Shown in pieces: positions 36,519-59,783 of a stretch of DNA of 64,000 nt (position 1 is the stretch's first letter; each line of letters begins with the position of its first letter). The notes below the pieces were generated by a model. The model saw nothing but the letters and a program-made list of their open reading frames with translations. It was not told the DNA's origin and searched no databases. The DNA lies in assembly GCA_026195895.1 (NCBI GenBank), contig JAPHRO010000042.1:19086-83085 (forward strand), in the 5' to 3' direction. Source of the stretch: Gammaproteobacteria bacterium (GTDB lineage: Bacteria > Pseudomonadota > Gammaproteobacteria > SZUA-229). The translations under genes were made by a program, and so were the position numbers.

Positions 36519-37421
36519 TTACTGAAAATACTCCATGATTGGTGTTAATACTATTTCACTGCCATTGACATCATAGATAGTCGAACTAAGCAATGTAAGA
36601 TTAGGCGAGGAACTCAAGCCTCGTGGATGGAGCACATAAATTTTTAAATAAGTATGATCAACCCCCTGTGGCGCAACAACATCAATAAACAGTTGATCCC
36701 CATTCTGGCGCCAGTAAACCATACGCTGTGTTTTACCAAATGCTCCTGTATTTGAGACTGAACCTCGTACTGTTGATTCTGGAACATAAATATTAATATC
36801 GTCTGGATTTAAAACAGTCTGATCAAAATCAATAACAAGCGAAGCGGCTCCAATCTCAATTCCATCATCAATGCCAAAGCTGATTTTAGCATGGGGTGCC
36901 GGTTCTAATTTTGTAAAATCTAATGCCAAATCAAGTGTTAGTGATTTACGCCAAAAGCTATCGTCAACACCAACACCAGGAATTATTTCCAGATTAATTT
37001 TATATGGTGCAGCAATACCTGAACTATCGTCATTCTTAGCGGGATCAACCGTCAAGTATGCACTTCCTGCAGGAACATTAGCGGGTATATCGACAACCAA
37101 AACAGTCTGCACAGGCTCATGCCCATTAAACCATGAAAAATAACTATCTATATAACGTGAATAATGTGTACCTTCAGCACGACCGTCAGCGCGTAGATTA
37201 AATACAGAACGCACCAAACCCAATGCCTGTAAATCCCATTCCGTTTCGTTAATATCTGTTAGAGTAACAAGCGTCGTTTCTTTACGAGCATTCTCAGACC
37301 CCCCAATCATTGCTGAAACCGTATCACCAGCACGCGCTACGGTTGGGAAAGTATTAACACCCGCACAGCCCTGTAATATCATTATGAGCATCACACCCAA
37401 AGCTGAAATAAACTTTATCAT
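36519..37421 (-). CDS. lipoprotein of unknown function (no C-terminal sorting tag)
   Basis: Lipobox ILQGCAG. A 300-aa beta-rich protein located between two sorting-tag genes. Confidence 0.5.
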   Translation of the reverse strand: MIKFISALGVMLIMILQGCAGVNTFPTVARAGDTVSAMIGGSENARKETTLVTLTDINETEWDLQALGLVRSVFNLRADGRAEGTHYSRYIDSYFSWFNGHEPVQTVLVVDIPANVPAGSAYLTVDPAKNDDSSGIAAPYKINLEIIPGVGVDDSFWRKSLTLDLALDFTKLEPAPHAKISFGIDDGIEIGAASLVIDFDQTVLNPDDINIYVPESTVRGSVSNTGAFGKTQRMVYWRQNGDQLFIDVVAPQGVDHTYLKIYVLHPRGLSSSPNLTLLSSTIYDVNGSEIVLTPIMEYFQ

Positions 37422-39522: not shown

Positions 39523-40212
39523 TTAAGCAGCTTTACGACGACGCGCAACACCTGCCAGGCCAATCAGGCCAGAACCGAACAACCATACTGCTGCTGGAAC
39601 AGGAACTGCAGCTACTACACCTTCAAGATGCAGACCATAGCCAAAGCCTGAGAAACCACCTGATGGTACGATCGCCTGGTAATCAAGAGTAAAAGTATCA
39701 CCTACAGCACAATCTACCGCACAAGTCAGAGTCGCGTTAGCGCCGGCACCCATATCGATAGGACCGTCTTCTCCAGCGGCTACGTCACCCCACCATACAG
39801 TCCAGCCAGACATGTCGATTGAAGCAGTGGCACCAGAAGCTGAAGCAATAGTCAGTCCATCAGCATCAGAAGTGTAGTGCTCACCTGGGTTACCACCAAA
39901 AGACCAAACCAGATCAACTTCACCGCGAGCTTGAGCTGAACCCAAAGTAATACCATTAGCAGCATTTGCGATAATTACACGCTCTTCTTGAGCTAAAGTG
40001 CCATCGCCATTTGTATCCATTACAAAGTAACTGCCACCTGCTGTAGTAGTCGCACCAAAAGTACAGGTAGGATAAGTACCACCAGCCTGACATGCGCCAA
40101 TACCGTCATCAAAGTTAAGAACTGCATCAGATGCCAGTGTTGCGTTTGCGTTGCTGCTTACACCAGCAGTTAAAGCCAGAGCCACAGCTGAGCCAAGAAA
40201 TTTTTTATTCAT
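39523..40212 (-). CDS. secreted 229-aa protein with VPxPA-type PEP-CTERM sorting tag; its N-domain is paralogous to gene 42382..44232
   Basis: C-terminus VVAAVPVPAAVWLFGSGLIGLAGVARRRKAA. The N-domain DAVLNFDDGIGACQAGGTYPTC...MGAGANATLTCAVDCAVGDTFTLDYQAIVPSGGFSG aligns with the N-terminus of the 616-aa protein. Confidence 0.75.
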   Translation of the reverse strand: MNKKFLGSAVALALTAGVSSNANATLASDAVLNFDDGIGACQAGGTYPTCTFGATTTAGGSYFVMDTNGDGTLAQEERVIIANAANGITLGSAQARGEVDLVWSFGGNPGEHYTSDADGLTIASASGATASIDMSGWTVWWGDVAAGEDGPIDMGAGANATLTCAVDCAVGDTFTLDYQAIVPSGGFSGFGYGLHLEGVVAAVPVPAAVWLFGSGLIGLAGVARRRKAA

Positions 40213-40283: not shown

Positions 40284-40300
40284 AAGCAACGCCCGTGCCA
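40284..40300 (-). promoter_or_regulatory. sigma-54 (-24/-12) promoter for sorting-tag gene 39523..40212
   Basis: Reverse complement reads TGGCACG-ggcg-TTGCTT, a perfect match to the TGGCACG-N4-TTGCW consensus, about 70 nt upstream of the start codon. This is consistent with control by the sigma-54 activator PrsR. Confidence 0.6.
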
Positions 40301-41016: not shown

Positions 41017-42339
41017 ATGATAAACAAAAATTTAAAGCTGGTAACCGCCCTTGGGTGCGCACTTGGAATAGCCACGCCAGCATCAGTGTTTGCTACCAAC
41101 GGAATGTTCATGATCGGGTATGGAAATAAATCCCGGGGCATGGGTGGCGTTGGTATTACCATGACTCATGACACACTTGCCAGTGCCGCCAATCCAGCAA
41201 CCATGGCGTTTATTAAAGGGAATCAATTCGATATTGGCGGCGATATATTCAAGGCAAACGCAGAAGCTTCCCTGGGTGAAGATGGTGTTTATCTAGGACG
41301 CGTGACCGTTGAAAGCAAACCTGATCACATGGCGCTTGCTGATGGTCTCTATATGATGCCAAGTCTGGGAGCAAGCTGGAATAAAGGTGATTTAAGCTAT
41401 GGCTTTACCATGGTACCCGTGGGCGGCGGTGGCAGTCGCTATGAACCTAATATTTATAACTCTGTAATTACAGGTGCGCCTACCGATGAAAAAATGGGTG
41501 TCTCACTTATGGTAATGAACATTAATCCCACCATTGCCTATAAACTGGATGAGAATAACAGCGTTGGTGCCACACTAATCATCGGCGCACAAGTTTTTAA
41601 ATCCTATGGCCTTTCATATTTCCAGACATTTACCGAATCAGATTCGCCCGACCATCTAACCGACCAGGGTGCGGATATCGCCTACGGTGCGGGTATCCGT
41701 TTAGGCTGGATGGGCAAATTTATGGAAAATAAACTAAGCCTGGGTGCTGAATTCACCTCACAAACCTATATGAGTAAATTTGACGACTATAGTGAACTGT
41801 TTGCCGGTCAAGGTGAACTCAATACTCCCGGCAATATTGGCCTGGGTGCATCCTATCAATTTATGGACGATTTAACTGTGGCTTTAGATATCAACTACAT
41901 CATGTATGAAGATATTCCAGCTATTGCAAACCTTGGTCCCGGCCAGGGCACGGATGGTGCATTGTATATTACAGGACCAGAAACTAATCAGCTTGGTCTG
42001 GATGAAGGGCTCGGCTTTGGCTGGGGAAACCAGACTGTAATCAAACTGGGCGTTGTCTACGCATACGATACACGCTGGACATTACGTGGTGGCTGGAACT
42101 ATGCCAAAAGCCCGATTCATGAAGAACGGGACATCCTGTTCAGTATGGTTGCACCTGCCACTACCGAACATCACCTGACACTGGGCGCAACTTACCAATA
42201 TGACAAAGATATTGAGCTCAACTTCTCATATGGCCATGCTTTCGAAAATACACAATGGGGGCCCACTTATATTGGTGGCAGCGGTGAAATCTCCATGTCT
42301 ACAGATGCGCTCGGAGCAAGCTTGTCAATGAAATTTTGA
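41017..42339 (+). CDS. outer-membrane beta-barrel transporter of the FadL/TodX/OMPP1 family
   Basis: Signal peptide, then ATNGMFMIGYGNKSRGMGGVGI, typical of the FadL-family N-terminus. The protein ends in an aromatic residue (...MKF). Confidence 0.65.
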   Translation: MINKNLKLVTALGCALGIATPASVFATNGMFMIGYGNKSRGMGGVGITMTHDTLASAANPATMAFIKGNQFDIGGDIFKANAEASLGEDGVYLGRVTVESKPDHMALADGLYMMPSLGASWNKGDLSYGFTMVPVGGGGSRYEPNIYNSVITGAPTDEKMGVSLMVMNINPTIAYKLDENNSVGATLIIGAQVFKSYGLSYFQTFTESDSPDHLTDQGADIAYGAGIRLGWMGKFMENKLSLGAEFTSQTYMSKFDDYSELFAGQGELNTPGNIGLGASYQFMDDLTVALDINYIMYEDIPAIANLGPGQGTDGALYITGPETNQLGLDEGLGFGWGNQTVIKLGVVYAYDTRWTLRGGWNYAKSPIHEERDILFSMVAPATTEHHLTLGATYQYDKDIELNFSYGHAFENTQWGPTYIGGSGEISMSTDALGASLSMKF

Positions 42340-42381: not shown

Positions 42382-44232
42382 ATGCAAAACAAACAAAAAT
42401 TAATTAAACCAATCAGCGCCATGCTGTTACTGGCGTGTGGTACGCTGTCTCAACAGGCACAGGCAGCATTACCCGCCAATGCAGTTTTAAACTTCACCTC
42501 TGGCGTTGGCTCCTGCCAGGCGGGCGGAACCTATCCTGCCTGTAATTATGGTGCCACTACTGTTCTAACTGGCAGTTATTTTGCCATGGATCTAAACACG
42601 CCTATTGGTGTTTTTGCCGAAGAAGAACGAACACTCATTGAAACAGCCGGTACTGGCGTTACTTTGGATACAGCCCAGGTAGCAGGCGCCATTGATCTTG
42701 ACTGGTCCTTCGGCGGTAATTTGGGACGACACCTTACCCTAAACGCATTGGCATACACTTCAACAGGATCTAACACCTATAACATTAATATGGCCGGCTG
42801 GACTGTTAACTGGGGAACTGAAGGCAACATCGATATGGGTGCGGGTGCTGCTGCAGTATTAACTTGTGCGGTTGACTGTACTATAGGTGATACGTTTACT
42901 CTTGATTACACTGCAGTTGTGCCGACTGGCAGCTTCAGTGGCATCAATTACCAGTTATATCTTGAAGGCACCATAGGTGTAGACAATACTGCTCCCGTAT
43001 CAAACAATGTAAATATTTCAAGGTTACCTGCAGCAAGTCATACCTGGACACCTGATGTAAGTGATGCTGACATGAATACTTTAACTTGCAACATCGAAAC
43101 TCAAGGATCAAGTGGTACTGCTGCTGTACTATCTGACTGTAGCTCGGGTACATATACACCAGCATCAGGCGCAGGTTTCACAGGCGCAGATTCCTTTACA
43201 TATAGTTCCAATGATGGCTTCGTTGATTCAAATCCACATGGAATTGTTTCTGTTACAGTGTTAGCCGATCCGCCACCATCATGCCAAAATTTACCCGCTT
43301 TGCCTGGTTCAACAACGGCTGCGGGCGTAGCAACCAATGTTACTATTGATGTCACAACTGTTTGTACTGATGCAGCTGGCAGCATAGTCGCCTCAACCCT
43401 GGCCGTATCCAGTACCAGCACGAACAATGGAAATGTTTCTGTTGACCCGGGCACAGGCATTGTTACTTATACGCCAGCATTTGGTTTTGCCGGCACAGAC
43501 ACATTCACCTATACAGTACAGGATGACAATGCTGGCACCTCAACACCTGCCACAGTCACCATGACTGTAGAAACAAACAGCGCTGGTTCACCAACTTCTC
43601 CTGATGGCACACTCGCTTGTGGTACAACTGCAAACTCAGCAGGTAGCACATCATGTGTTGTAACGATGGAAAATATTGGAGTTAATGACAACGGCTTTAG
43701 TAGAGCCCAGGGAATAGCTCAATCTTGTGTAGGCGGCTGTTTTGATTTCACTGTCAGCGGACTAACAGCTGGTAGTGAAGCACGAATCATATTACCTCTA
43801 AGCACTGCAATTCCTGCAGCCGTTGCGGACGATGCCGGTCACAAAATTGTATATAGAAAACTAATGCCTTCAGGATGGCAAGACTTCGATACATCAGACA
43901 ATAATGCAATTGCATCAGCAGCAGGCAGTCCTTCAGGAGCTGATATTATTTGCCCACCCGCTGGAAATGCAAGTTATATATCTGGTCTAACTACAGGTGA
44001 CCGCTGCATACAACTGACGATAACTGATGGCGGCCCTAATGATGCAGATGGCACAGCAAATGGCACCGTGGTTGATCCTGGTGGTGTTAGTGAAACATTT
44101 TTCACCAGTGGAACAGACGGTTGCAGCATGTCTAAAACATCCGTAAATGCACGTGAGCGAGCTGACTGGTGGTTGGTTGCCGGCTTCTTAGGTCTATTGG
44201 GATTATTTAGACTTACACGCAACAAGGCATAA
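42382..44232 (+). CDS. 616-aa secreted surface protein. N-domain paralogous to the VPxPA-tagged 229-aa protein. Central Ig-like Thr/Ser-rich repeats. Distinct C-terminal tag GCSMS-(12 aa)-TM-RLTRNKA
   Basis: Signal peptide. AVLNFTSGVGSCQAGGTYPACNYGATT...MGAGAAAVLTCAVDCTIGDTFTLDYTAVVPTGSFSG matches gene 39523..40212. The tail ...TDGCSMSKTSVNARERADWWLVAGFLGLLGLFRLTRNKA replaces the VPVPA motif with a Cys-containing motif. A CPBP protease gene follows 6 nt downstream. Confidence 0.7.
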   Translation: MQNKQKLIKPISAMLLLACGTLSQQAQAALPANAVLNFTSGVGSCQAGGTYPACNYGATTVLTGSYFAMDLNTPIGVFAEEERTLIETAGTGVTLDTAQVAGAIDLDWSFGGNLGRHLTLNALAYTSTGSNTYNINMAGWTVNWGTEGNIDMGAGAAAVLTCAVDCTIGDTFTLDYTAVVPTGSFSGINYQLYLEGTIGVDNTAPVSNNVNISRLPAASHTWTPDVSDADMNTLTCNIETQGSSGTAAVLSDCSSGTYTPASGAGFTGADSFTYSSNDGFVDSNPHGIVSVTVLADPPPSCQNLPALPGSTTAAGVATNVTIDVTTVCTDAAGSIVASTLAVSSTSTNNGNVSVDPGTGIVTYTPAFGFAGTDTFTYTVQDDNAGTSTPATVTMTVETNSAGSPTSPDGTLACGTTANSAGSTSCVVTMENIGVNDNGFSRAQGIAQSCVGGCFDFTVSGLTAGSEARIILPLSTAIPAAVADDAGHKIVYRKLMPSGWQDFDTSDNNAIASAAGSPSGADIICPPAGNASYISGLTTGDRCIQLTITDGGPNDADGTANGTVVDPGGVSETFFTSGTDGCSMSKTSVNARERADWWLVAGFLGLLGLFRLTRNKA

Positions 44233-44237
44233 AAGCC

Positions 44238-44768
44238 TTGAGCAGAAACACTCTGCTCATCATCAACGGCGCTGCCCTCACCGGCTGCGCCGTTTTTGAT
44301 TATGCCTGGCGTACAACATTAGTGACCAGTTTGATGTTGCTGCTGCCCTTTATTGACCGAACATGGTCATTACCTGAATTTCATATCAATAAAATAAAAT
44401 TGATATTCTGGTCAATAAGCATTGTATCAGGAATATTACTCGTTACATTCAAACCGGATTATGCAACCGCAGCACTTGCTACACTGGTATTAACGGCATT
44501 ACCGGAAGAATGGTTTTTTCGTAGCTATTTTATGATGCGTATTGAAAGAGCAGGATTGCAGCCATACCAAGCCAACATTATTACTTCTCTGTTCTTTGCT
44601 TTGCTTCACCTGCCCGCGCAAGGCTGGTTTGGTTTAAGTGTATTTATTCCATCTTTGATATACGGGTGGATATTTCAGAGGACTAAAGATATTGTGTTAG
44701 TAATTTTGTTACATGCGCTGTCTAATATAGTGTTTTTTATTTATATACGGGACTATCTAAACCTGTAG
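44238..44768 (+). CDS. CPBP-family intramembrane metalloprotease (CAAX-protease/Abi-like), PEP-CTERM-locus type
   Basis: The motifs EEWFFRSYF (EExxxR), LLHLP and HALSNIVFF are the three CPBP signature motifs; 176 aa polytopic. A CAAX-protease-related family is known to occur in PEP-CTERM/exosortase loci. Confidence 0.75.
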   Translation: MSRNTLLIINGAALTGCAVFDYAWRTTLVTSLMLLLPFIDRTWSLPEFHINKIKLIFWSISIVSGILLVTFKPDYATAALATLVLTALPEEWFFRSYFMMRIERAGLQPYQANIITSLFFALLHLPAQGWFGLSVFIPSLIYGWIFQRTKDIVLVILLHALSNIVFFIYIRDYLNL

Positions 44769-44884
44769 CTTATCTTTAAGAGAATGGTATATATGTTAAA
44801 TGCCTTGAAAAACATACGACACCACCTTGAAAACCTAACGACATTCGATCTACCATCAGAGCTACTCAGGGCTTAACATTAAAT

Positions 44885-45985
44885 CTATACCAGTTTCTTT
44901 GTTTTGATTTTACAATAAAGAATTTCGTATGTTGTAGTTGGGCCACAGCCAAATAACGGCGAGTTTCTCTGCTCTTCTATGTTACCACTACCGTGCAATA
45001 TTATTCTCACTGGTTCCAGCCCCTGTTTTGTTAAATACTCAAACAAAGCGGCCATCAAATTTATACGCCCTTCAAATTCTTTTAACGAATGCCCTGCACC
45101 AATTGAGATAACAAAATCAGATACAGTGTCCAATACTGGCGCGAGTTGAGTAAAATATTTTACTACATCCGGTATAATTTCATGATCAATACGAATTCCC
45201 GCGACCAAATTACATGGCCTCCAGTTTTTTTTATTCATCAGGCCGGGTATTTTTTTCATGGCACTATCTGCATTTTCATTAAGCGCCAATATCCACTCCG
45301 AATAATTACGATTAAATGACGTATAAAGCTCATCAAAGGCCGGATCATTATCAATTAAAACCACATTTTCTGGTCGGTTTATAGATTTTCCAAAAACAAT
45401 CATGTTATTGCTATTATCTAATATATTAACCTTCCGCCTTATTACAGGGTTCATGTGTATTCCATCAAGTTCACGATTGGCATTCCCAGCTGCAAACGAT
45501 AACTGCCTCTGGGTACTGCTATTAGATGATAACAGCCCCATCATACGCAGTATTTGCATTGACCTGACCACATCTGTTCTATGCACACGCGCTTGTAATT
45601 CATTAAGTTTATCTGCAGGCGCATCACTAAATTGAGATAAACCCTGACTTATCAGGGCATGCATACCTTGACGATTAATGGCATGTACTGGCAACTCCCA
45701 TCCATCAAATAATTCACAACAAGCGGCCAAATGCGAATAAAGAAATATTTTCTTTAATTCCGGTACCTGATTACTTCCATAAATAACATTTGTCCCATTG
45801 GACAATTTTTTTACAAACTTTTTACTATTAAGTCTTTTAGCCCTGTCTCGAATGAATAATTCATAATTTTCAAAATCTTCAAGAATTTTCGCCAACATGC
45901 CTGATTCGGCAATTGCTGCGAGGCCTTCACCATCGACATTAAAAGATTTTTTGAGATCTTCAAACATTTCCTTGCCTGTATTCAT
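44885..45985 (-). CDS. hypothetical 366-aa protein, AT-rich, no recognisable domain
   Basis: ORF with coding-like amino-acid composition. It is flanked by the CPBP protease and the LanM-like gene on the same strand. Confidence 0.45.
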   Translation of the reverse strand: MNTGKEMFEDLKKSFNVDGEGLAAIAESGMLAKILEDFENYELFIRDRAKRLNSKKFVKKLSNGTNVIYGSNQVPELKKIFLYSHLAACCELFDGWELPVHAINRQGMHALISQGLSQFSDAPADKLNELQARVHRTDVVRSMQILRMMGLLSSNSSTQRQLSFAAGNANRELDGIHMNPVIRRKVNILDNSNNMIVFGKSINRPENVVLIDNDPAFDELYTSFNRNYSEWILALNENADSAMKKIPGLMNKKNWRPCNLVAGIRIDHEIIPDVVKYFTQLAPVLDTVSDFVISIGAGHSLKEFEGRINLMAALFEYLTKQGLEPVRIILHGSGNIEEQRNSPLFGCGPTTTYEILYCKIKTKKLV

Positions 45986-46054
45986 TTTGTTGCCTAATTA
46001 TTTGACCCTGAGAGGAGTATCTATCTTTGATGCGCCTTTATTATTTATAAAAAA

Positions 46055-47773
46055 CTAATCTGCCTTACCTATTTCATTCAATGATTGCAGAAGATATTTT
46101 TTCTGTTCTTTAAGTTTAGAATTGTCCATCGTTTTTACACGATGCAAAACCAATTCATAACCGGATAATTCAAAAATATCATCAAATTTAGTTTTATCTT
46201 CCTTATTCAATCCCCTGGCTGTACTTTTCACAGTAAACCTGGGCACATCTAGACGCGCTAGTATTGCTAATTCTTTTTTGGCAATATCTTGAGGAAGACC
46301 TTTTGAGAAGACAGATGGAAATTTATTACATAATTGATATATATAATCCACATATACCGCGCCATTTTTTAGTGCTGCTGGTACAACAGCAGAATGAATT
46401 ATATGCAAATAGGAACCTGTCCTGCGCATATTAAAACGCACATCAAGCTCTTTAAATTCATTTAATGGACTATCATCCGAAAGCAGATTTTCTTTTTTTT
46501 CCTGAATAAGCTTATAGGCATACTCAAAACCATCAATAACGAAGTCTCTATATTTATGTACACGTTGATATTTTTCATTTATAAAGGGCAGGGCCATGTT
46601 TTCATTTTCCGGATCAAAAAATCCAACCGCACTGATATCCCCTGTTTTTCCTGTACGCCTTTCCTCTATGATCGGAAACAATCTAGTACCAATAACTGAT
46701 TCATAATAATTATTCTGAATATCATAAATGGATTGATCTTTAAATTCGGCGTTATTTCTATCGACATATAGTGGATAAAATAACATTTCATGATCAATAA
46801 AAAAGGGGGCATTAGCATGAGCTATTAGATTGTCGTGGTGATAGTCTGATCCTCTAATAATATACAAAATAGCTCCGAACATGCCTATTCTTTGATAAAA
46901 TTGTTCTATGTCTTTTTCAGATTCGCAGGGTTTATTACTAATAAATTTGGACCAACCATAGGTAAGTTTATTAATTACAGGAACTGAACTCAATTTTAAT
47001 TCAGCTTTATTATCTTGCTCGTTAAACCAATCAACAAATTTCTTGAACGCATGCTCGGCAAGCATGTTCTTGGGTTTGTATACTATTTTGTTTTTATGAT
47101 CGAAACTGACAATTACCACAGTTTGACCGTATTCATGCGGATCAGACAAATCAAGTTGAAGTTCAGAAATAGTTTTAATAACTTCTTCACCAGTAATATT
47201 ACTATGCCTATCAAAAAACACCTGATCTAGTTGCGCATAATCAGCTATTAGTCGCTTGAACAATATTGATGTTGCCTGAATCCAGTAATTTGTATGCATT
47301 GCCAATAATCTTGCCAGCACATTATATTCTTTAAATAATCGTAATGGATTAGCATATATCTGTTTAATATACCCCTCAATATCCATACCAGAAAATTGAG
47401 AACTGTCTTGTTTTTCTTTATAGCTAATTGATATGGTATATGAACAAATATAAACCAGTTTTTTCGCTAGTTGATTTTCCAGATCCAGTTTGCATTTATC
47501 ATCAAGAGCCCCATAAAAGACACCAGACAATGATAATAACTCTATTGTGGCGACTTTTATAAAGGGCGTGATTAGTGCAATATAAAAATCATCATCATTG
47601 CCTTGCTTATATTTATTAGGACCGTTATAAGGGATTCTTTTATACTGCTCAATAGCCGACGATAATAATATCATCCATCGCGCAGTATTGTTACCATCTG
47701 GCACAGTTTCAAAAGGAAACCTTGAATTATTAATAATACCAAGATATTTTTTATTAAGTTTAATTTTTTTCAT
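46055..47773 (-). CDS. stand-alone LanM-N-terminal-like (DUF4135, lipid-kinase-fold) dehydratase-domain protein with no LanC cyclase domain
   Basis: Motif GSDYHHDNLIAHANAPFFIDHEMLF fits the D-x-H-x-x-N ... D-x-E catalytic pattern of class II lanthipeptide synthetase dehydratase domains. The 572-aa length corresponds to the dehydratase half only. Confidence 0.5.
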   Translation of the reverse strand: MKKIKLNKKYLGIINNSRFPFETVPDGNNTARWMILLSSAIEQYKRIPYNGPNKYKQGNDDDFYIALITPFIKVATIELLSLSGVFYGALDDKCKLDLENQLAKKLVYICSYTISISYKEKQDSSQFSGMDIEGYIKQIYANPLRLFKEYNVLARLLAMHTNYWIQATSILFKRLIADYAQLDQVFFDRHSNITGEEVIKTISELQLDLSDPHEYGQTVVIVSFDHKNKIVYKPKNMLAEHAFKKFVDWFNEQDNKAELKLSSVPVINKLTYGWSKFISNKPCESEKDIEQFYQRIGMFGAILYIIRGSDYHHDNLIAHANAPFFIDHEMLFYPLYVDRNNAEFKDQSIYDIQNNYYESVIGTRLFPIIEERRTGKTGDISAVGFFDPENENMALPFINEKYQRVHKYRDFVIDGFEYAYKLIQEKKENLLSDDSPLNEFKELDVRFNMRRTGSYLHIIHSAVVPAALKNGAVYVDYIYQLCNKFPSVFSKGLPQDIAKKELAILARLDVPRFTVKSTARGLNKEDKTKFDDIFELSGYELVLHRVKTMDNSKLKEQKKYLLQSLNEIGKAD

Positions 47774-47931: not shown

Positions 47932-50307
47932 CTACAATTTTTTTATAATCAGTTCTGCTTCTTCATGCCCCTGAAACTTTCTGCCACTTTCAAGCGCTTT
48001 CCCCAAAAAAACTCTAGCGGCATCCTGATTTCCAATTTTGTAATATGCCATACCAAGGTGATATTGAAATATAGGAATATCACTCGCTTTTTCCACTACT
48101 TTCTCAAGAATTGGTACCGCTTTGTCAATCTCACCGGTTTTATAATAAATCCAGCCTATCACATCTAGAAACCCAGGATTTGTTGAATCTTCAAAGGGCA
48201 TAGCAAGTTCTTTTGCTCTTTTCAGACTTTCTGCATCACCTTTTCTGTCTGCCAAAAGAAGCGCAAGATTATTTACAGCCAAAGTATTACTGGAATCAAT
48301 AATCAGAATTTTATCATAGATATTTATCGCCTTTTCATGATCATCCTGACGCTCATAAATTTTCGCTAACTTTGCCATAATCTGAGTATCTTTCGGCAAA
48401 ATTCCGAGAGCCTGTTGATAAATACGAATAGCACCACTTTCATTTCCTTGTTTAAGATAAAGATTCGCAAGACTTATATAAGGTAATGACCATTTGCTGT
48501 TTAATTCAATGGCTTTATGTATTGCTTTTTCTGCCTCCGAATTCTTCTTCTGCGCCAGATAGACTTCACCCAATAACTCATAAGGTATTGCATTTTCTGC
48601 ATGCTCCTTAATCAGCGCATTCAATCTATTAATTGCATTATCGTACTGCTTTAGTTGTAAATGAAGTTTAATAATGGTTGCCATCAATGGCAATAATTTA
48701 TTTGATCTTTTTAGCGCAGCATCATACTCTGTGAAAGCCTTCGGAAATTGCTTTGTAGCGGCATAATAATCCCCCTTCAATTGGTAGCCGTCGGGTCTTG
48801 CTGGATGTGTGGACTTGATTGTATCAATCATTTCACTTACTTCATCCATATCATGCCTGGCTATTGCATATTTTACCTTCATCTTTAATGCATCAATATG
48901 TTTGGGCGAAACTGTCAGTAATTTATTGATTTCTTTTTCAGCTACATCAAGCCTCCCTGCTTTTTGCAAATAATTTGCATAGTTTATATACATCTCTGGA
49001 TTACCAGGCGAATCAGTAATCCCTCTTCTCAGTACTTCCTCAGCCAATTCCGGTTCATTGTTTTTCATGTGTGCAACTGATAATAATGATACAGCTTTGA
49101 CTAAACCCGGCTGATGCTTAATAACAGTTCTAAATGAGCTAATAGCAACGTTGTAGTCCTTCTGGTCAAAAGCGACTCTCCCCTTCATAAATAACGCATC
49201 ATTATCACCCGGATTAGTATCCAGAACTTCCTTAATAAGCTGGCTTGCAACATCAGGATCTTTTTGTTTTAAAGCTATTTTAGCCAGTTTATTTCTTGCC
49301 TTAAGACCATTGGGCTTATAGCCATCAAGTTTGATAATTTCCTGATAGACGTCCACTTCTTTTCCAGGTCTCATTGTTTTATACAGCTCAGCCAATACAA
49401 AGCGCAATTTGAACAATTCAGGATTTTTTTCGATGGCCGATAGCAACGTTTTTTCTGCTCCTTTTACATCTTTGCGCTTAGCCTGGAATTCAGCTAAATA
49501 CAAATACCCTTTCTCATCATATGGATTTATAGATATAATATTCCGAACAGCCTGCTCCGCCTTGTCAAGCTCATCACGTCGTGTATAAAATGAGGCCAGA
49601 TTGATATGAGAAGAAATATTTTCAGGGTCAAGAGAGATAATATCTTTTAATACTATTTCTGCATTTTTATAATCTTTTATCCTGGCATAAACCTCTGCCA
49701 GCTGAACTCTCAGGCTTTGCTCATGCGGCAAAGAATTTATGCCTTTTTTTAGAACTTCGATCGCCTTATCATTTTCTCTGGCTTTTGTATAAAGCACCGC
49801 AAGGGTACGAATTGCATCAATTTGAGCGGGATCTTCTGTAAGAAGATTTTTTGCATAAGGTATTGCTTCTTTATCATTTGTCTGGAACATTACAAACAGT
49901 TTTAGCAGCTTTCCATCCATACTTTCTGGATCAATCGAAACAATCACATCTAAAATTTCTTTTGCCTTGTCAACATCCCTGCTTCTTAGGTAAATCCGTG
50001 CCAGTTTTGCCTGTGCTTTCGTATGAGTTAAATCAAGCTCTACCGCCTGCTTATAATTGGCAAAAGCCTGACGTAAATTTTGGCGTTGTTCTTCAAGCAA
50101 TCCCATCATGTAATAAGCTTCAGAATATTTTGGATCTATCTGTAATGTATTTTTAAACTCTATCCTGGCTTTGTCATAATTGCCTTCCTTAAAGTAAGCC
50201 CTGCCCTTCTCCAGATAAGACTCTTTACGCGCATCTTCACCACTGCAACCTAATAGCATAATAGCCAAACAAACAATTGAGATTAATCTAAGTTTAAGAA
50301 ATCTCAC
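47932..50307 (-). CDS. prsT: PEP-CTERM system TPR-repeat lipoprotein (PrsT family), copy 1
   Basis: Lipobox MLLGCSG, then about 20 TPR units over 791 aa. The N-terminus is collinear with copy 2 (YLEKGRAYFKEGNYDKARIEFKN...). Confidence 0.7.
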   Translation of the reverse strand: MRFLKLRLISIVCLAIMLLGCSGEDARKESYLEKGRAYFKEGNYDKARIEFKNTLQIDPKYSEAYYMMGLLEEQRQNLRQAFANYKQAVELDLTHTKAQAKLARIYLRSRDVDKAKEILDVIVSIDPESMDGKLLKLFVMFQTNDKEAIPYAKNLLTEDPAQIDAIRTLAVLYTKARENDKAIEVLKKGINSLPHEQSLRVQLAEVYARIKDYKNAEIVLKDIISLDPENISSHINLASFYTRRDELDKAEQAVRNIISINPYDEKGYLYLAEFQAKRKDVKGAEKTLLSAIEKNPELFKLRFVLAELYKTMRPGKEVDVYQEIIKLDGYKPNGLKARNKLAKIALKQKDPDVASQLIKEVLDTNPGDNDALFMKGRVAFDQKDYNVAISSFRTVIKHQPGLVKAVSLLSVAHMKNNEPELAEEVLRRGITDSPGNPEMYINYANYLQKAGRLDVAEKEINKLLTVSPKHIDALKMKVKYAIARHDMDEVSEMIDTIKSTHPARPDGYQLKGDYYAATKQFPKAFTEYDAALKRSNKLLPLMATIIKLHLQLKQYDNAINRLNALIKEHAENAIPYELLGEVYLAQKKNSEAEKAIHKAIELNSKWSLPYISLANLYLKQGNESGAIRIYQQALGILPKDTQIMAKLAKIYERQDDHEKAINIYDKILIIDSSNTLAVNNLALLLADRKGDAESLKRAKELAMPFEDSTNPGFLDVIGWIYYKTGEIDKAVPILEKVVEKASDIPIFQYHLGMAYYKIGNQDAARVFLGKALESGRKFQGHEEAELIIKKL

Positions 50308-50782: not shown

Positions 50783-52186
50783 CTAAACACTAATATTTAA
50801 TTTTTGAATTAAATCATAAAGTGTTGGACGACTCACCCCCAACAATTCAGCTGCTGGTGCGACTTTACCATTAGTATTATTCAAAGCTCGCTGAATTACT
50901 TCCCGCTCAGCAGCTTCACGAACTTCTCGTAAGTCAAAAGAGTGGCTACCCGATTCTTTTTCTGCTACATCAAGCTCAAGATCTTCAGCAGTTATGTGTT
51001 TTCCATCAGCCATAATAACTGCACGCTTAATCCTGTTTTTTAATTCACGCACATTACCCGGCCATTCATGGGCATCAATTGCAACTAGCGCATCTTTAGT
51101 AAAACCTTTTAATCTTTTGCCCTGCTCTTCATTCATTTGGTCAAGAAATGCACGGGCTAGCAGCAATACATCCCCATCTCTATCTTTAAGCGGCGGAATA
51201 TTTATTGGGATTTCGTTAATACGATAATAAAGATCTTCCCTGAACTCTCCTTTTTCGATTTTATCTTCCAGATTCTGGTGGGTGGCACAAATAACACGCA
51301 CATTGACCGGTATTTCTTCACGACCACCGATACGTTCTACTACACGCTCCTGTAAAAAACGTAATAATTTGGCCTGCAACGGTAAGGGCAACTCACCCAT
51401 TTCATCTAAAAATAAAGTGCCACCTTCTGCGTATTCAATTTTTCCTGGTGTGGTTTTTGCGGCACCGGTAAACGCACCTTTTTCATAACCAAACAGTTCA
51501 CTTTCCAGCAGATTTTCAGGTATGGCTGCACAGTTAATAGCTACAAAACGCCCGCTTATGGAAGGGTTTTTCCCATGCAATGCACGGGCACATAATTCTT
51601 TACCTGTCCCGCTATCACCTAACAATAAAACGGTGGCATCTGATGGAGCGACTTTTTCTACCCTTTGACATACCGTCTGCATCTGCGGACTACTGGACAC
51701 CAGACCTTCCATCGGCATATCGACTTTATGCATGCTAAGTTTGCGATTTTCTTCTTCTAACTCATACACATGATAAGCACGATTAACTATCTGGTTTAAT
51801 ACATCTGAATCAATAGGTTTCTGATAAAAATCATAAGCGCCAGAGGCTACTGCAGCGACAGCATTCTCACGCTCATCATTACCACTAACAATAATGACCT
51901 TTGTATTAGGCGCAACAGATAAAATTTGTTCCAGGGTAGCTAATCCTTCTGTACTTCCATCCGGGTCTGGAGGTAAGCCAAGATCAACCGTTGCCACGGG
52001 AGGATGATGTTTTTTGATTTGTTTAATTGCTGATTCCCGGTCACCGGTAACAATAACTTCGAAATCTTCGAAGCTCCATTTCATTTGCTTTTGTAGACCG
52101 GGATCGTCTTCTACCACGAGTACTTTTTTGTTGTTTTCCATATTAAATATTTTGTAATAAATTTCGACAAGTTGATGAGTGTGCAC
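50783..52186 (-). CDS. prsR: sigma-54-dependent response regulator (PrsR-type, NtrC family): receiver + AAA+ sigma-54 activation domain + HTH
   Basis: Receiver domain (VLVVEDDPGL...D), Walker A GDSGTGKE, a GAFTGA-type loop (GAFTGAAKT), ESELFGYEKGAFTGA and a C-terminal Fis-type HTH. Confidence 0.8.
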   Translation of the reverse strand: MHTHQLVEIYYKIFNMENNKKVLVVEDDPGLQKQMKWSFEDFEVIVTGDRESAIKQIKKHHPPVATVDLGLPPDPDGSTEGLATLEQILSVAPNTKVIIVSGNDERENAVAAVASGAYDFYQKPIDSDVLNQIVNRAYHVYELEEENRKLSMHKVDMPMEGLVSSSPQMQTVCQRVEKVAPSDATVLLLGDSGTGKELCARALHGKNPSISGRFVAINCAAIPENLLESELFGYEKGAFTGAAKTTPGKIEYAEGGTLFLDEMGELPLPLQAKLLRFLQERVVERIGGREEIPVNVRVICATHQNLEDKIEKGEFREDLYYRINEIPINIPPLKDRDGDVLLLARAFLDQMNEEQGKRLKGFTKDALVAIDAHEWPGNVRELKNRIKRAVIMADGKHITAEDLELDVAEKESGSHSFDLREVREAAEREVIQRALNNTNGKVAPAAELLGVSRPTLYDLIQKLNISV

Positions 52187-52364: not shown

Positions 52365-52781
52365 TTAAATAGTTTCTTTGTAAGCTTTATATGCACGTTC
52401 GATAATCATATTTAATTTCACCAAATCCACCGGCTTGGCAAAAAACTCAAATGCCCCAGAATCAACAGCACGTTTTGCATTCGTTTTCTCATCAGAGCCT
52501 GAAACGATAACTACTTTGGTGCCTGGTGCCTCTTCCAGAATTTGCTTTAATATTGCGAAACCTTCATTGCTGCCTTCAGCATCAGGCGGCAGTCCTAAAT
52601 CCAGTGTCACTACCGCTGGATGGTATTTACTAAACTGCTCCAGTGCATCCGCCCTGTTTTCTGCAGTCACTACATCAAAGCCCTCGAATCCCCACTTTAA
52701 CTGGCTACGGATGCCTGGATCATCATCAACAATAAGTATTTTTGGATTTTCAGCCATCTTGTTTTCTCTTTTCACGCTCAT
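52365..52781 (-). CDS. single-domain response-regulator receiver, paralogous to the PrsR receiver domain
   Basis: KILIVDDDPGIRSQLKWGFEGFDVVTAENRADALEQFSKYHPAVVTLDLGLPPD is collinear with the PrsR N-terminus (VLVVEDDPGLQKQMKWSFEDFEVIV...VATVDLGLPPD). Its start overlaps the prsK stop by 32 nt. Confidence 0.75.
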   Translation of the reverse strand: MSVKRENKMAENPKILIVDDDPGIRSQLKWGFEGFDVVTAENRADALEQFSKYHPAVVTLDLGLPPDAEGSNEGFAILKQILEEAPGTKVVIVSGSDEKTNAKRAVDSGAFEFFAKPVDLVKLNMIIERAYKAYKETI

Positions 52782-54891
52782 TTAGCTGAACAACCTGGGG
52801 GTGCTGATCAACACTTTCGTTTTGACTAATCGGTATTTTTAGCCTGAATAAAGACCCCTTGTCGAGCTGGCTTTCTACATCCAGCTCACCACCCAGTTTA
52901 TGCACATATTCTCTTACCTGAAAGACGCCTATTCCCATGGTTCCCTTGGTAGATTCAAATGGCTGGAACAGGCGCTCATGAATAAATGCTTCGTCCATGC
53001 CGCAACCCGTATCCTCCACTTCGATTATTGCATGATTACCCTGCCGCTTCAGGCGTACCGTGATGCGGTCATCTTCATTGGTTGCATCCTGTGCATTCTG
53101 GATAAGATGCGCCAGATTAGCAGCCATACGATCCCGATCAGCCGTAATCATTAATTCCTGCGTCTGACAGTTCAATACTGGAATCGGTAAAGTACCTGCT
53201 CTGCTACAGTTCCCTACTGTCTCCTCCATTAGCTGGCACAGACTAAACGCGGCCACGCCCTCTTCTGATTCTCCTTTTAAACGAGACAGAAGCTTATTCA
53301 TCTTATTTACCGAATTCTCCACCGTGCTAATAGCATCATCTATAAACATAGGATTGTTTTTGTGCCTGGCCGCATTAGACACAACCATCGATAGCTGCCC
53401 GACCATATTCTTGATATCGTGAACAATAAAGGCAGATAGCCGATTCACTTCTTCAAAACGTCTGGAACCTGCAAGTGCCAGAGCAGCTTCCTGCTGCGCC
53501 AGATGACTGGCCGCCTGGCGACCTGCGGTTTTCAACAAATCACTATCTTCCCAATTGAAAAAGTTCTGATGCGCGGGTGAACGGCTTAATATAATAAATC
53601 CAAGCATTGAATCCTGTAGCATTAAAGGTACGACCAACCAGGCGTCTTTCATTGACTCCAGCCATTCTGGAATTTCCAGTGGCGCCAGACGAGTATAAAC
53701 CTCAGGATTATTCCTGAATTCATCAAGCCTGATTACAAATTGCTGATCTTCCAGAAAACGAATGAGGGCATGATCAACTGACTCTCTTGCATTGATCAAT
53801 TCGGTATTCCAGCGTTCCTCTGGCTCAAAACAACCGTTTTCACGGCGCATCCATAACATACCGCCAGGGCTGTCAATAATTTGCGCCAGAGAACGAATAG
53901 CACGCTCGTGCAGCCTGACCGCTTCATTTCCTGTAGAGAGAGTACGAATAATCCGCAGCCACTCTTCGCGATAATCATATTTATAATGAAAGAAATGCTT
54001 ATCTATTAGCACCTTAAGCCGGGCGCGTACACGCCTTGAAAACATTAATACGGCCAGCATTAGTACTGCGCCAAAAATAAATGTAGCTTGCGCAACCAGG
54101 CCCCAGGTACCGCCTAAGTCACGCACATAGAAACCACCAACACCAATAACAATCATATAAATGCCGGCAGCTAGTAGTGTGGTGGTATGAAATACAATTC
54201 TCCGTGACAGGAAAATATCGATTGTGTCCTTGCCTATTGACCATTGCATCTCACGCTTGATAGCCACGCCTATCAAGGGAACCACCATCGCATGAATAAA
54301 GCCACGAGCATTCCAGAGCTCATTATCAATGCGCTGGAACAGGAAGGCATCTGAGTAGAGATAAAAATCATAGGCAAACATACTGCCTATACCCAGCCAT
54401 AAAAACTTAAGAGCTACGCGATGCTCTTCAGCTGTATTACGATAGAGTTGCTCAATAATAACAAGGCCACCGATAGAAATAAGCAAATGACCGATAAGAA
54501 TGTCGTTACCGGCAATAAACTCAAAAACCGAACCGCCGGAAATACGATATTGAGCCAGTAACATCAGCCCAATAATAAAAACCGATAATCCTGCAAATGT
54601 CAGTCTGAAACGACTGGAAACCTGTTCAGTAGATTTATACGCAGTCCGCAACATGACCAACAGAAAAGCGAACCAGGCGAGAGAACGTAATAATTCAAGA
54701 ATTAATGTTGCGCTCAACAGGCCACCATAAGCAGCCTGGTAGGTAACCGCAGCTGACCACAAGGCACTTGCGATTGCCGCAATAGCCAACATGCGCTTGG
54801 GAAGATTTTCTCGCTGACCGGTTAGCATAACCAGCCCTAATATGAGAAATAAGGCTGTTGCCAGACCAAAGCTAATGACTTCAATTAGCAT
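52750..54891 (-). CDS. prsK: PEP-CTERM system histidine kinase (PrsK-type): polytopic N-terminal membrane domain, GAF-like region, HisKA/HATPase
   Basis: About 10 N-terminal TM helices, H-box AFIVHDIKN, and G-boxes (DTGCGMD; GTMGIGV). 713 aa. It sits immediately upstream of the receiver and prsR. Confidence 0.75.
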   Translation of the reverse strand: MLIEVISFGLATALFLILGLVMLTGQRENLPKRMLAIAAIASALWSAAVTYQAAYGGLLSATLILELLRSLAWFAFLLVMLRTAYKSTEQVSSRFRLTFAGLSVFIIGLMLLAQYRISGGSVFEFIAGNDILIGHLLISIGGLVIIEQLYRNTAEEHRVALKFLWLGIGSMFAYDFYLYSDAFLFQRIDNELWNARGFIHAMVVPLIGVAIKREMQWSIGKDTIDIFLSRRIVFHTTTLLAAGIYMIVIGVGGFYVRDLGGTWGLVAQATFIFGAVLMLAVLMFSRRVRARLKVLIDKHFFHYKYDYREEWLRIIRTLSTGNEAVRLHERAIRSLAQIIDSPGGMLWMRRENGCFEPEERWNTELINARESVDHALIRFLEDQQFVIRLDEFRNNPEVYTRLAPLEIPEWLESMKDAWLVVPLMLQDSMLGFIILSRSPAHQNFFNWEDSDLLKTAGRQAASHLAQQEAALALAGSRRFEEVNRLSAFIVHDIKNMVGQLSMVVSNAARHKNNPMFIDDAISTVENSVNKMNKLLSRLKGESEEGVAAFSLCQLMEETVGNCSRAGTLPIPVLNCQTQELMITADRDRMAANLAHLIQNAQDATNEDDRITVRLKRQGNHAIIEVEDTGCGMDEAFIHERLFQPFESTKGTMGIGVFQVREYVHKLGGELDVESQLDKGSLFRLKIPISQNESVDQHPQVVQLNEREKRKQDG

Positions 54892-58022: not shown

Positions 58023-59783
58023 TTAACAGGAATATTCCCTCTCCTCATCACCAATAAATCCTTCACGCAATAAATAAAGCATAATTTCCTGCGCGGCCTC
58101 CATTGGGGCTATATCAGTAGTATCAATTCGAAGCTCAGGAATTTCCGGTGCTTCATAAGGATCACTAATACCGGTAAACTGTTTTATCTCTCCCTTTCGA
58201 GCCCTGGCATACAATCCTTTACGATCACGTTTTTCACATTCTTCTAATGGAGTCGCCACATGAATCTCTATAAACGCGCCATATTTTGCATTTTGTTCAC
58301 GTACATATTTTCTTATTGCAGTATAGGGTGCTATTGGGGCACAAATTGCTATACCACCGTTTTTGTTAATAACACTGGCAACATAACCGATTCTTTTAAT
58401 ATTAATGTCTCGGTGTTCTTTACTGAACCCCAGTTCACTTGATAGATAATGACGCACAACATCACCATCGAGCAGTGTTACCGGTCTCTTGCCCTCTTCT
58501 ATGAATTTTGAATAGATTATTTTGGCCAGGGTTGATTTTCCGGAACCCGATAGCCCGGTAAAAAATAGCGTTATGCCGGTTTTAGATCGTGGTTTACAGA
58601 TTTTCTTAAGTTCTGAAATAACTTCAGGATAACTAAACCAGCCAGGTATTTCCTGACCCAACTGAAGACTTTCATGGAGCTGTTTATCTTTAAACAGTTG
58701 ACCTTCCAGATTCTGTTCAGTTATTTCTTCAACAGGTATAAATTTATCCAGTTCACTCACATAACGCCTTTCCCTGATCGTCACCATTTCTATTTCCAGC
58801 TCATTCTGATATTGCTGCATTAATTCCTGCGATGCATACTGCTTATAAAATCGTTCCTCGCCCTGCCTTACATTAGGGGGTGCTGCATGCTCGGAACCGA
58901 TAATAATATGTGAACAACCATAATTCTGCCGGATGATGGCGTTATGAATAGCCTCTCTGGGTCCTGCCATACGCATAGCCTGGGGCAGCAGGGACAACAT
59001 CACCATATGTCTGGGATAATGTTTCTGTATCGCCTGATAACACTGTACTCGGGTGTGATATTGCAAATCCCCCGGCTTACTCAAACCGACGACCGGGTGT
59101 AATAATATATGCGCGCCTACTTCCTTCGCCGCCTCAAGTGTAATATCCCGATGCACCCTGTGCATTGGCTTACTGGTACCAAACGCGACTACACGCCGCC
59201 AGCCATGTTTTTTAAACAAATGACGTAGTTCTTCAGGCGTATCTCTGAGAGTTTCAAAATCATAATGTACTGGTAACTGGATGCCTTCGACAGTACCGCC
59301 GATATAGTATTCCTTAACCTGGTTCAGCAAATAATCAACACCGGGATGATGTTCTGATGTGGTTCCATACACCGCCTCAGCTTCAGCACGTTTATCCGCC
59401 TTCCAGATATCTTCTACATGCAGTACCGCTAGCATAAAACCCTCAGGGTCCTGCAAGGCGATACTGTCACCAGGACTCAATTGCTGTACCTGCTTTGCAT
59501 CCACATCAAGGGTGATGGGTATAGTCCACAACAATCCACTAGAGAGACGCATAGACGATAGAACAGAGTCATAATCTTTTTGCGTCATAAAACCTGTTAA
59601 CGGACTTAACGCACCGTTTAACAGCATTTCAAGATCGCAAAACTGGCGTTGGCTCAGAGTGATGGAATAATAGTGCTCAGACTCGTGCTTAAGAACTTCT
59701 GCTCGCTCAGGACTACAGATTAGATTTACCAGCTCACCGCCATAAGGTTTTACTAAAGTTGTCATAAATAAGTTACCAAACAA
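58023..59783 (-). CDS. bifunctional sulfate adenylyltransferase (ATP sulfurylase) / adenylylsulfate kinase (PAPS synthesis)
   Basis: N-terminal ATP-sulfurylase domain (QTRNxxH-like HRDITLEAAKE...GPREAIHNAII). C-terminal APS kinase with P-loop GLSGSGKST and LDGDVVRH. Confidence 0.8.
   Translation of the reverse strand: MFGNLFMTTLVKPYGGELVNLICSPERAEVLKHESEHYYSITLSQRQFCDLEMLLNGALSPLTGFMTQKDYDSVLSSMRLSSGLLWTIPITLDVDAKQVQQLSPGDSIALQDPEGFMLAVLHVEDIWKADKRAEAEAVYGTTSEHHPGVDYLLNQVKEYYIGGTVEGIQLPVHYDFETLRDTPEELRHLFKKHGWRRVVAFGTSKPMHRVHRDITLEAAKEVGAHILLHPVVGLSKPGDLQYHTRVQCYQAIQKHYPRHMVMLSLLPQAMRMAGPREAIHNAIIRQNYGCSHIIIGSEHAAPPNVRQGEERFYKQYASQELMQQYQNELEIEMVTIRERRYVSELDKFIPVEEITEQNLEGQLFKDKQLHESLQLGQEIPGWFSYPEVISELKKICKPRSKTGITLFFTGLSGSGKSTLAKIIYSKFIEEGKRPVTLLDGDVVRHYLSSELGFSKEHRDINIKRIGYVASVINKNGGIAICAPIAPYTAIRKYVREQNAKYGAFIEIHVATPLEECEKRDRKGLYARARKGEIKQFTGISDPYEAPEIPELRIDTTDIAPMEAAQEIMLYLLREGFIGDEEREYSC

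Follow-up and report, generated by a model that had tools for sequence, protein, structure and literature searches.

A stand-alone LanM-type dehydratase domain with a methyltransferase-fold neighbour in the exosortase locus of an uncultured marine gammaproteobacterium

What does the dehydratase half of a LanM lanthipeptide synthetase do inside a protein-sorting locus? The question is raised by a stretch of 64,000 nucleotides from a gammaproteobacterial genome (assembly GCA_026195895.1, contig JAPHRO010000042.1, positions 19,086 to 83,085 of the forward strand), hereafter called the window, whose 3′ half (33.7–63 kb) holds an exosortase system, the first 33 kb being taken up by housekeeping genes. 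Within this system lies the gene for a protein of 572 amino acids (aa) with a DUF4135 domain (46055..47773, minus strand), and 69 bp downstream of it in the table of open reading frames (ORFs), on the same strand, the gene for a 366-aa protein of an orphan family (44885..45985). A preliminary description of the locus had named these two ORFs together with a mini-ORF, and all three are present in the ORF table. The 572-aa protein consists of a LanM-type dehydratase domain on its own, which has a lipid-kinase-like fold and is not joined to a cyclase half. We give even chances to the proposal that it is a functional dehydratase and makes up, with the 366-aa protein, a tailoring module that works in the cytoplasm and is linked to the sorting system.

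The identity of the 572-aa protein is established by profile searches and by its predicted structure. In Pfam it matches PF13575 (DUF4135) with E 4.8e-82, and in NCBIfam it scores 345.9 bits against the LanM model TIGR03897 (cutoff 304), the best stretch covering model positions 2–321 of 932. The only sequence matches in PDB are LicM2 (E 2e-33, in two stretches covering residues 145–333 and 391–565 of the 572-aa protein) and CylM (E 3e-17). The AlphaFold2 model, for which 15 family sequences served as input, has a pLDDT of 79.6, and a Foldseek search with this model retrieves LicM2 (E 1e-22, TM-score 0.70 over 589 columns) and CylM (TM-score 0.66), followed by the lipid kinases VPS34/PI3K; identity in the Foldseek alignments is about 21% to LicM2 and 18% to CylM. 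As the alignment to LicM2 spans 589 columns, the 572 residues correspond to the whole dehydratase domain. The LanC-like domain (PF05147) finds no Pfam match in the protein, which ends at residue 572, nor in any other window ORF included in the Pfam scan, which covered ORFs of at least 150 aa less three likely shadow ORFs and one 160-aa ORF. Thus, the resemblance to LanM, the missing LanC-like half and the lipid-kinase fold, the first two claimed and the third put forward for checking in the preliminary description, are all borne out.

The catalytic residues are likewise retained. In CylM, phosphorylation depends on Lys274, Asp347, His349, Asn352, and Asp364, and phosphate elimination on Asp252, His254, Arg506, and Thr512 (PMC4550811). 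The D-x-H-x-x-N … D-x-E pattern noticed earlier is indeed found in the 572-aa protein, as D310-Y-H312-H-D-N315 and I-D327-H-E329, aligned to D347/H349/N352/D364 of CylM. Counted through the HMMER alignment, the phosphorylation set maps to K233, D310, H312, N315, and D327, and the elimination set to D211, H213, R446, and T452, the latter two within the motif VRFNMRRT. In an alignment of 15 DUF4135 members, diverged down to 36–40% identity to the window protein, 59 columns are invariant, every catalytic residue among them; D211, H213, K233, D310, H312, N315, and D327 are strictly so, and at least 90% of the sequences keep R446 and T452, a shortfall that may be due to the truncation of three of the 15. 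Given that neighbouring genes differ far less between the same loci (PrsR 77–84% identical, FadL 64–85%), the preservation of these residues indicates purifying selection on the chemistry of a fast-evolving gene. The residues needed for elimination only would be expected in a true Ser/Thr dehydratase rather than merely a kinase, and from this sequence evidence the protein is very probably an active Ser/Thr kinase/dehydratase. Its length is typical of its relatives, 13 of the 14 other aligned members also being no longer than 579 aa.

The partner protein was called unknown in the preliminary description, which holds as far as family models are concerned: no Pfam or NCBIfam model matches it, and Pfam is negative for 25 members of its family. 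It does not hold for the structure, since the AlphaFold2 model is very confident (pLDDT 92.6, pTM 0.92) and contains a class I methyltransferase fold. The C-terminal ~200 residues (about 155–366) form a seven-stranded Rossmann-like domain resembling class I S-adenosylmethionine (SAM) methyltransferases, and the N-terminal ~150 residues (1–150) form a helical domain with a Cys–Cys pair, of which, in the 25-member alignment, C89 is conserved in at least 90% of sequences and C90 is invariant. By inspection, a Gly-rich loop with the consensus QLS[F/L][A/G]AGxGxRD was placed after the first strand of the model (160–164), and the strand 207–212, taken as strand 2, ends in D212 (motif LIDNDP), which is invariant in 38 diverse members. 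Class I methyltransferases use these positions, the Gly-rich loop and the acidic residue of strand 2, for SAM binding. Use of SAM by the 366-aa protein is, judging from the model, somewhat probable. The protein nevertheless differs from class I SAM methyltransferases such as BioC (8x8i), PEAMT (4krh), and NodS (3ofj), to which it has no detectable sequence or profile similarity, in its extra N-terminal helical domain with the Cys–Cys pair and in an inserted β-hairpin. A sequence link between the family and methyltransferases was sought and rejected: Pfam was negative, hhalign gave a probability of 1.8% against a canonical TPR-methyltransferase, and a profile search of PDB yielded no match. As the fold alone supports the assignment, we use the name methyltransferase-fold protein. 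The family comprises 25 clusters in a word-indexed search and 170 representative clusters, 130 of them at E < 1e-30, when 1.84 billion representatives are searched exhaustively by profile; its full-length matches are mostly ~355–390 aa long. In two distant members, P0121 (652 aa) and P0160 (444 aa), the domain is fused at its C-terminus to a region in which motifs of canonical class I SAM methyltransferases are seen by eye, in P0121 the glycine-rich motif among them, and the Gly-rich loop of their 366-like domain is degenerate (LGASMARRD).

Is the association of the two genes with the exosortase system peculiar to this genome? The DUF4135 clade is very small: a word-indexed search of 5.8 billion proteins yielded 21 clusters, 14 of which, including the window's own, share at least 38% identity with the window protein; all of these come from metagenomes or metagenome-assembled genomes (MAGs). 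The same slot, that is, prsR followed by the DUF4135 gene and then by convergent genes for a CPBP protease, a tagged protein and FadL, is kept in about 10 distinct contigs, so that homologues do stand next to CPBP and PEP-CTERM-type genes. In six loci (related loci are denoted here by L numbers), the DUF4135 gene is the next gene after prsR, and in two something intervenes, a sulfotransferase with tetratricopeptide repeats (TPR) in L020 and an extra PrsT paralogue in the window. Across the loci, PrsR and FadL are conserved as given above and PrsK is 72–75% identical, compared with 39–72% for DUF4135 and 40–66% for the 366-aa protein; the neighbours being much more conserved, the organisms represent one lineage in which these two genes evolve fast.

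The co-directional arrangement pointed out earlier recurs: a gene of the 366-aa family lies downstream of DUF4135 in seven of the 11 loci with a known downstream gene, namely, the window, L001, L005, L018, L022, L030, and a 4389-bp contig apparently common to P0007 and P0026. A TPR-sulfotransferase takes this place in L003, and convergent TPR and canonical SAM-methyltransferase sequence in L020, the locus with the upstream TPR-sulfotransferase. DUF4135 occurs without the 366-aa gene, and with nothing in the downstream slot, in L007 and L031; conversely, L008/L013 carries the 366-aa gene without DUF4135. In more distant gammaproteobacterial MAGs, a small sample, the 366-aa gene accompanies a protein of 626–869 aa with TPR and Sulfotransfer_3 domains, beside PrsR and/or VPLPA-type proteins; it lies directly downstream of the TPR-sulfotransferase gene in L010, L011, L012, L014, L015, and L016 (gaps of 4–84 bp) and directly upstream of one in L029 (gap of 117 bp). 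Altogether, the gene next to the family member codes for a LanM-type kinase/lyase or else for a sulfotransferase in 14 out of 15 loci with known neighbours. Some of these loci also have TPR-GT41 (OGT-like) genes at other places. The usual substrates of TPR-fused transferases are proteins. The interval between prsR and the CPBP gene is a variable island, which we read as a lineage-specific modification island and in which DUF4135, the 366-aa family, TPR-sulfotransferases and a TPR-methyltransferase are swapped.

On the other side of this island lie the proteins that could be modified. The 616-aa product of the gene at 42382..44232 (plus strand) is a secreted Big_9/cadherin-like protein according to Pfam and NCBIfam matches, with 22% Ser and Thr and 16 Cys residues, and is a candidate substrate. 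It ends in a tail of the form [ST]DGC[SN]MS-x(7-9)-[ER][RH]ADW[WL]xVA-hydrophobic-basic, conserved in eight out of eight orthologues examined (in the window, DGCSMS-x9-ERADWWLVA-hydrophobic-basic, region 44100–44232), which no NCBIfam sorting-domain model matches. The gene that directly follows (44238..44768, plus strand, convergent to the 366-aa gene) encodes a 176-aa CPBP/Rce1-like intramembrane protease (PF02517, E 3e-20), for which the best NCBIfam matches, all below cutoff, are the myxosortase models Mrt_core, MrtP, MrtC, and MrtJ. A myxosortase-like CPBP gene directly follows seven of the eight tagged orthologues and adjoins the tagged-protein gene in every locus that has it (L031 has no CPBP gene). 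The conserved tail and the adjoining protease bear the signature of a dedicated pair of sorting signal and sorting protease. It is probably the CPBP protein that sorts the 616-aa protein, and by sequence the pair looks like an undescribed signal/myxosortase subfamily embedded in an XrtD locus. We considered and rejected the role in bacteriocin immunity or maturation that had been suggested for the CPBP protein, given its myxosortase-like matches, its constant DGCSMS-tagged neighbour and the lack of association with a cluster for peptides that are made on ribosomes and modified after translation (RiPPs).

The second candidate substrate is a 229-aa PepA-like protein with a VPLPA-CTERM sorting signal of the PEP-CTERM type (39523..40212, minus strand; TIGR03370, 34.5 bits, cutoff 25.35; PF07589), one of three VPLPA-CTERM proteins in the window (207, 229, and 471 aa). 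A σ54 −24/−12 element, TGGCACGGGCGTTGC, is found at 40286..40300 on the minus strand with no mismatches, starting 88 nt upstream of the start codon of this gene, and is the only zero-mismatch σ54 site in the 64-kb window. Its presence is consistent with control of the 229-aa gene by PrsR/RpoN and agrees with published work in which pepA genes depend on RpoN (PMC9850573). At its N-terminus, the 616-aa protein carries a domain of ~200 aa homologous to the 229-aa VPLPA-CTERM family (its tblastn hits lie on the 229-aa orthologues of L001 and L010, 28–44% identity), so one domain is routed through two sorting systems in a single locus; a choice-of-anchor U domain is present as well. The gene for a FadL/PorV-like outer-membrane β-barrel (41017..42339, plus strand; PF03349, E 4e-20; PorV_fam, 1e-11) lies upstream of the tagged-protein gene in the window and in every related locus that includes a FadL gene.

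How might these elements work together? In the mechanism that we infer, as regards dehydratase activity, SAM use by the 366-aa protein and substrate identity alike, the 572-aa enzyme would bind ATP, phosphorylate Ser/Thr side chains of a polypeptide, and then eliminate the phosphate to yield dehydroalanine (Dha) or dehydrobutyrine (Dhb). As there is no cyclase, the dehydro residues would persist or react further, and the 366-aa enzyme would then perform a SAM-dependent step on the same substrate. No N-terminal signal peptide is obvious on inspection of either protein; modification would take place in the cytoplasm, before Sec export, with the Ser/Thr-rich secreted proteins encoded alongside as the nearest candidates, and the island would encode tailoring enzymes for the products of the sorting system. 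A precedent for modifying Sec substrates in the cytoplasm is HMW1C-type glycosylation. We take a polypeptide connected with the sorting to be the likeliest class of substrate. That the substrate is a sorted protein encoded in this locus, as one of the two readings in the preliminary description had it, is a tentative proposal, on the less probable side. The more specific scheme, in which a LanM dehydratase has been recruited to full-length secreted proteins of the exosortase and myxosortase systems, leaving Dha/Dhb or phospho-Ser/Thr on them before export, is rather unlikely. Under that scheme, the 366-aa family would act downstream of an enzyme activating a hydroxyl group, a LanM-type kinase/lyase here and a TPR-sulfotransferase elsewhere, in a two-step tailoring of biofilm matrix proteins that first activates the hydroxyl and then processes it; we assign it the same low likelihood.

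Several observations weigh against a tailoring module for sorted proteins. No substrate of the 572-aa enzyme was identified in this analysis, and loci without DUF4135 have the candidate substrate proteins just as well. The DUF4135 and 366-aa genes each occur without the other (L007 and L031; L008/L013). No σ54 promoter was found upstream of DUF4135 in nine loci, the gene of the 229-aa VPLPA-CTERM protein alone having one, so that promoter sequences do not appear to support co-regulation of DUF4135 with the sorted proteins. The assignment of the 366-aa protein as a putative methyltransferase comes from its modelled fold only. The LanM-type dehydratases characterized in the literature surveyed act on short precursor peptides, not on full-length proteins. 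Since the DUF4135-clade loci all belong to a single, fairly narrow lineage, their conserved position may in part be inherited synteny. Finally, the evidence is all genomic and comes from one uncultured lineage.

The other reading offered by the preliminary description is a RiPP-like module, which we keep beside the tailoring of secreted proteins as one of two leading hypotheses. It holds that the precursor is encoded elsewhere in the genome, as for ProcM-type enzymes, that the product is a linear, dehydrated, methylated peptide, and that the location within the exosortase locus is an incidental insertion; we judge it unlikely, yet a serious contender. Every characterized relative of the 572-aa protein is a RiPP enzyme. 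Alike by description is HomMD (LanMD) of the hominicin daptide cluster of Staphylococcus hominis, like the 572-aa protein a single-domain DUF4135 protein without a cyclase, which works with SAM-dependent methyltransferase(s) encoded beside it (PMC12749797) and whose product keeps dehydro residues and has no lanthionine rings (PMC12749797). HomMD, however, belongs to a full RiPP cluster with the precursor HomA, a protein with a RiPP recognition element (RRE), a protease and an oxidoreductase, none of which was found around the 572-aa gene; here the partner belongs to an orphan methyltransferase-fold family, and the host is a Gram-negative marine gammaproteobacterium. The second comparison is with CcaM (LanMbC) of the dehydrazoles, a divergent DUF4135 protein that performs dehydration only, forms no lanthionine product and is leader-independent (PMC10676384). 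This leader-independence shows that a DUF4135 domain can be retargeted. CcaM differs from the 572-aa protein in being fused to a class III-type, zinc-independent cyclase-like domain needed for its activity, and in acting on azole peptides together with a YcaO protein, none of which is seen here; like HomMD, it belongs to a full RiPP cluster.

Distant homologues, ~25–28% identical to the window protein, sit in classical RiPP clusters. In L024 (7638–12965), five precursor genes of the NHLP/Nif11 type come before the gene for a stand-alone DUF4135 protein of 544 aa (25% identity to that of the window), and genes for a small peptide with a double-glycine motif and a DUF7005 protein come after it; by its appearance, this is another kind of RiPP cluster, split or cyclase-less. 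L025, and probably L023, encode full-length LanMs in comparable clusters, in L025 among Nif11-type precursors. An incidental insertion would also fit the plasticity of the island, with its gene swaps and an IS110-family transposase in L030, and the GC content of the DUF4135 gene, which at 32.8% is the lowest in the locus; as a signal of horizontal transfer, low GC is not decisive, as the GC3 of 26% is within the range of the locus (26–44%).

Against a distant precursor speaks, first, the search for RiPP components in the loci. An all-versus-all comparison of 444 intergenic ORFs of 18–110 aa from 13 loci revealed no conserved small ORF shared between DUF4135 loci, and the small genes called in L001, L005, and L007 are each unique to their own locus. 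Neither NHLP/Nif11-type leaders (nine L024 and L025 precursors as tblastn queries) nor double-glycine motifs (regular expression) were found in the window or the clade loci, and the Pfam scan detected no LanT/PCAT transporter, RRE, RiPP-type protease, or cyclase, LanC included, among the larger window ORFs. Second, the same slot next to prsR is occupied across genomes whose DUF4135 proteins have diverged to 39% identity, which would not be expected of an unrelated hitch-hiker, and third, apart from DUF4135, it is TPR-sulfotransferases in loci of the PEP-CTERM type, and not RiPP clusters, with which the 366-aa family is associated.

The dehydratase domain of CylM, LicM2, and LctM is homologous to the 572-aa protein over its whole length, with the same fold and the same residues for phosphorylation and elimination; yet LanM proteins carry a C-terminal LanC-like zinc cyclase that the 572-aa protein does not have, and LanM clusters include LanA, LanT and immunity genes, none of which was found near the 572-aa gene, the context being an exosortase locus. 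Lacking cyclase, precursor, and transporter, the 572-aa protein is not a LanM synthetase.

The substrate might not be a peptide at all. A kinase of this type could have been recruited to a sugar- or lipid-linked exopolysaccharide intermediate, with the 366-aa protein methylating, and the sulfotransferases of the relatives sulfating, the same polymer, which we regard as quite improbable. The lipid-kinase-like fold, with VPS34/PI3K as the next structural matches after the LanMs, is in keeping with this idea, and so are a priming GT4 transferase and a 3′-phosphoadenosine-5′-phosphosulfate (PAPS) synthase encoded in the locus. In addition, DUF4135 and the TPR-sulfotransferases are interchangeable in position, and each places an anionic group on a hydroxyl. 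Polysaccharides are commonly decorated by methylation and sulfation. Against this idea stands that D211, H213, R446, and T452, which serve elimination only and would be needless in a sugar or lipid kinase, are kept under purifying selection; moreover, the TPR domains of the sulfotransferases and GT41 proteins in related loci suggest protein rather than glycan substrates, and the immediate island contains no genes for a polysaccharide polymerase or flippase.

Decay of a former LanM, drifting without current function after the loss of its cyclase half, is a highly improbable account of the 572-aa protein, for, despite the missing cyclase half, precursor and transporter, an evolution faster than that of the neighbours (39–72% versus 64–85% identity) and its absence from some sister loci, the gene persists as an intact full-length ORF of 553–579 aa in at least 10 genomes, with a consistent C-terminus and no ragged truncation across members, with 59 invariant columns that include every catalytic residue, and with the whole domain predicted at moderate to good confidence (pLDDT 79.6).

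How much of this has been described before? The window shares XrtD–EpsI, PrsK, PrsR, PrsT, VPLPA-CTERM proteins and the σ54 promoter at a PepA-like gene with the known PEP-CTERM/exosortase systems of the PrsK–PrsR–PrsT type (Haft 2006, PMC1569441) and with the PepA floc proteins (PMC9850573). It differs from the described exosortase loci in having a second, myxosortase-like sorting pair embedded in it, and the described exosortase accessory families include no DUF4135 or 366-aa member; for DUF4135, NCBIfam offers only the LanM model, and for the 366-aa family, nothing. In the DUF4135 literature that a full-text search returned, neither the titles and abstracts nor the selected full texts make a link to exosortase systems. 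The statement of the preliminary description that this combination is not a described system therefore has to be divided: stand-alone LanM-type DUF4135 dehydratases are already known (LanMD/HomMD, PMC12749797), and it is the exosortase context and the 366-aa partner family that are undescribed.

The LanM-type dehydratases characterized in the literature surveyed make small antimicrobial or signalling peptides. If the 572-aa enzyme indeed tailors exosortase-sorted matrix or surface proteins, dehydroamino-acid chemistry would extend from RiPPs to proteins of the bacterial cell surface, and the poorly understood PEP-CTERM systems would obtain their first defined protein-modifying accessory enzyme. 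If, on the contrary, an unlinked precursor is the substrate, the 572-aa and 366-aa proteins would give uncultured marine bacteria a minimal pathway, of two enzymes, to linear peptides that are dehydrated and methylated. In either case, the 366-aa family, a compact orphan family of ~170 clusters without a Pfam or NCBIfam model, whose neighbour alternates between a kinase/lyase and a TPR-sulfotransferase, is a testable lead to a new tailoring pathway.

The mini-ORF of 27–30 codons (44793..44876, plus strand, with a possible ATG at 44784) lies within the 116 bp that separate the 366-aa gene from the convergent CPBP gene. We rejected it as a gene or precursor, and with it the suggestion that it is part of the system: it is read from the opposite strand, in a gap where two genes converge, and is not conserved, the best tblastn hit in eight related loci having E 1.9, and the equivalent gap measures 12 bp in L001 and 85 bp, without a comparable ORF, in L018. 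The gap contains no consensus terminator, and its reverse strand folds to −23 kcal/mol. In L030, an IS110-family transposase gene (1865–2848) lies between the 366-aa and CPBP genes, and in L005 the same gap holds two unrelated small genes; this boundary of the island is an insertion hotspot.

The remaining genes of the system lie upstream of DUF4135 on the same minus strand, in agreement with the preliminary description, which placed prs regulators on one flank and named a CPBP protease as a neighbour. The extra PrsT-like TPR lipoprotein (47932..50307, 791 aa; TIGR02917, 337 bits, cutoff 312) is 35–37% identical to PrsT of the relatives, compared with 53–57% identity to their full-length PrsT for the 802-aa orthologue (55217–57625, also a TPR lipoprotein); it sits between prsR and DUF4135, a position not occupied by such a copy in the other loci. 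PrsR (50783..52186; TIGR02915, 713 bits) and PrsK (52750..54891; TIGR02916, 750 bits) score far above the cutoffs. Between their genes, a stand-alone receiver domain of ~130 aa is encoded (52365..52781), conserved in L001, L005, L006, and L018 and absent in L003; in the window, its gene and the prsK stop overlap by 32 bp. Judging from this position, the predicted receiver protein makes the Prs system a three-component one in this lineage.

Farther upstream, the PAPS synthase (bifunctional ATP sulfurylase/APS kinase, 58023..59783; NF004040, 817 bits) lies between the genes of PrsT and of the priming transferase GT4 (59827..61446, assigned by Pfam) and the exosortase XrtD fused to EpsI (61460..63049; TIGR04152, 594 bits, cutoff 400). 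The window itself encodes no sulfotransferase domain, TPR matches only, in contrast to the related loci, which hold one to three TPR-sulfotransferases. At the other end of the system, a putative lipoprotein of 300 aa without a Pfam or NCBIfam match (36519–37421, minus strand) is 55–64% conserved in L001, L008, and L010, and in L001 and L008 its gene adjoins that of a subtilisin/TSP3-repeat protein.

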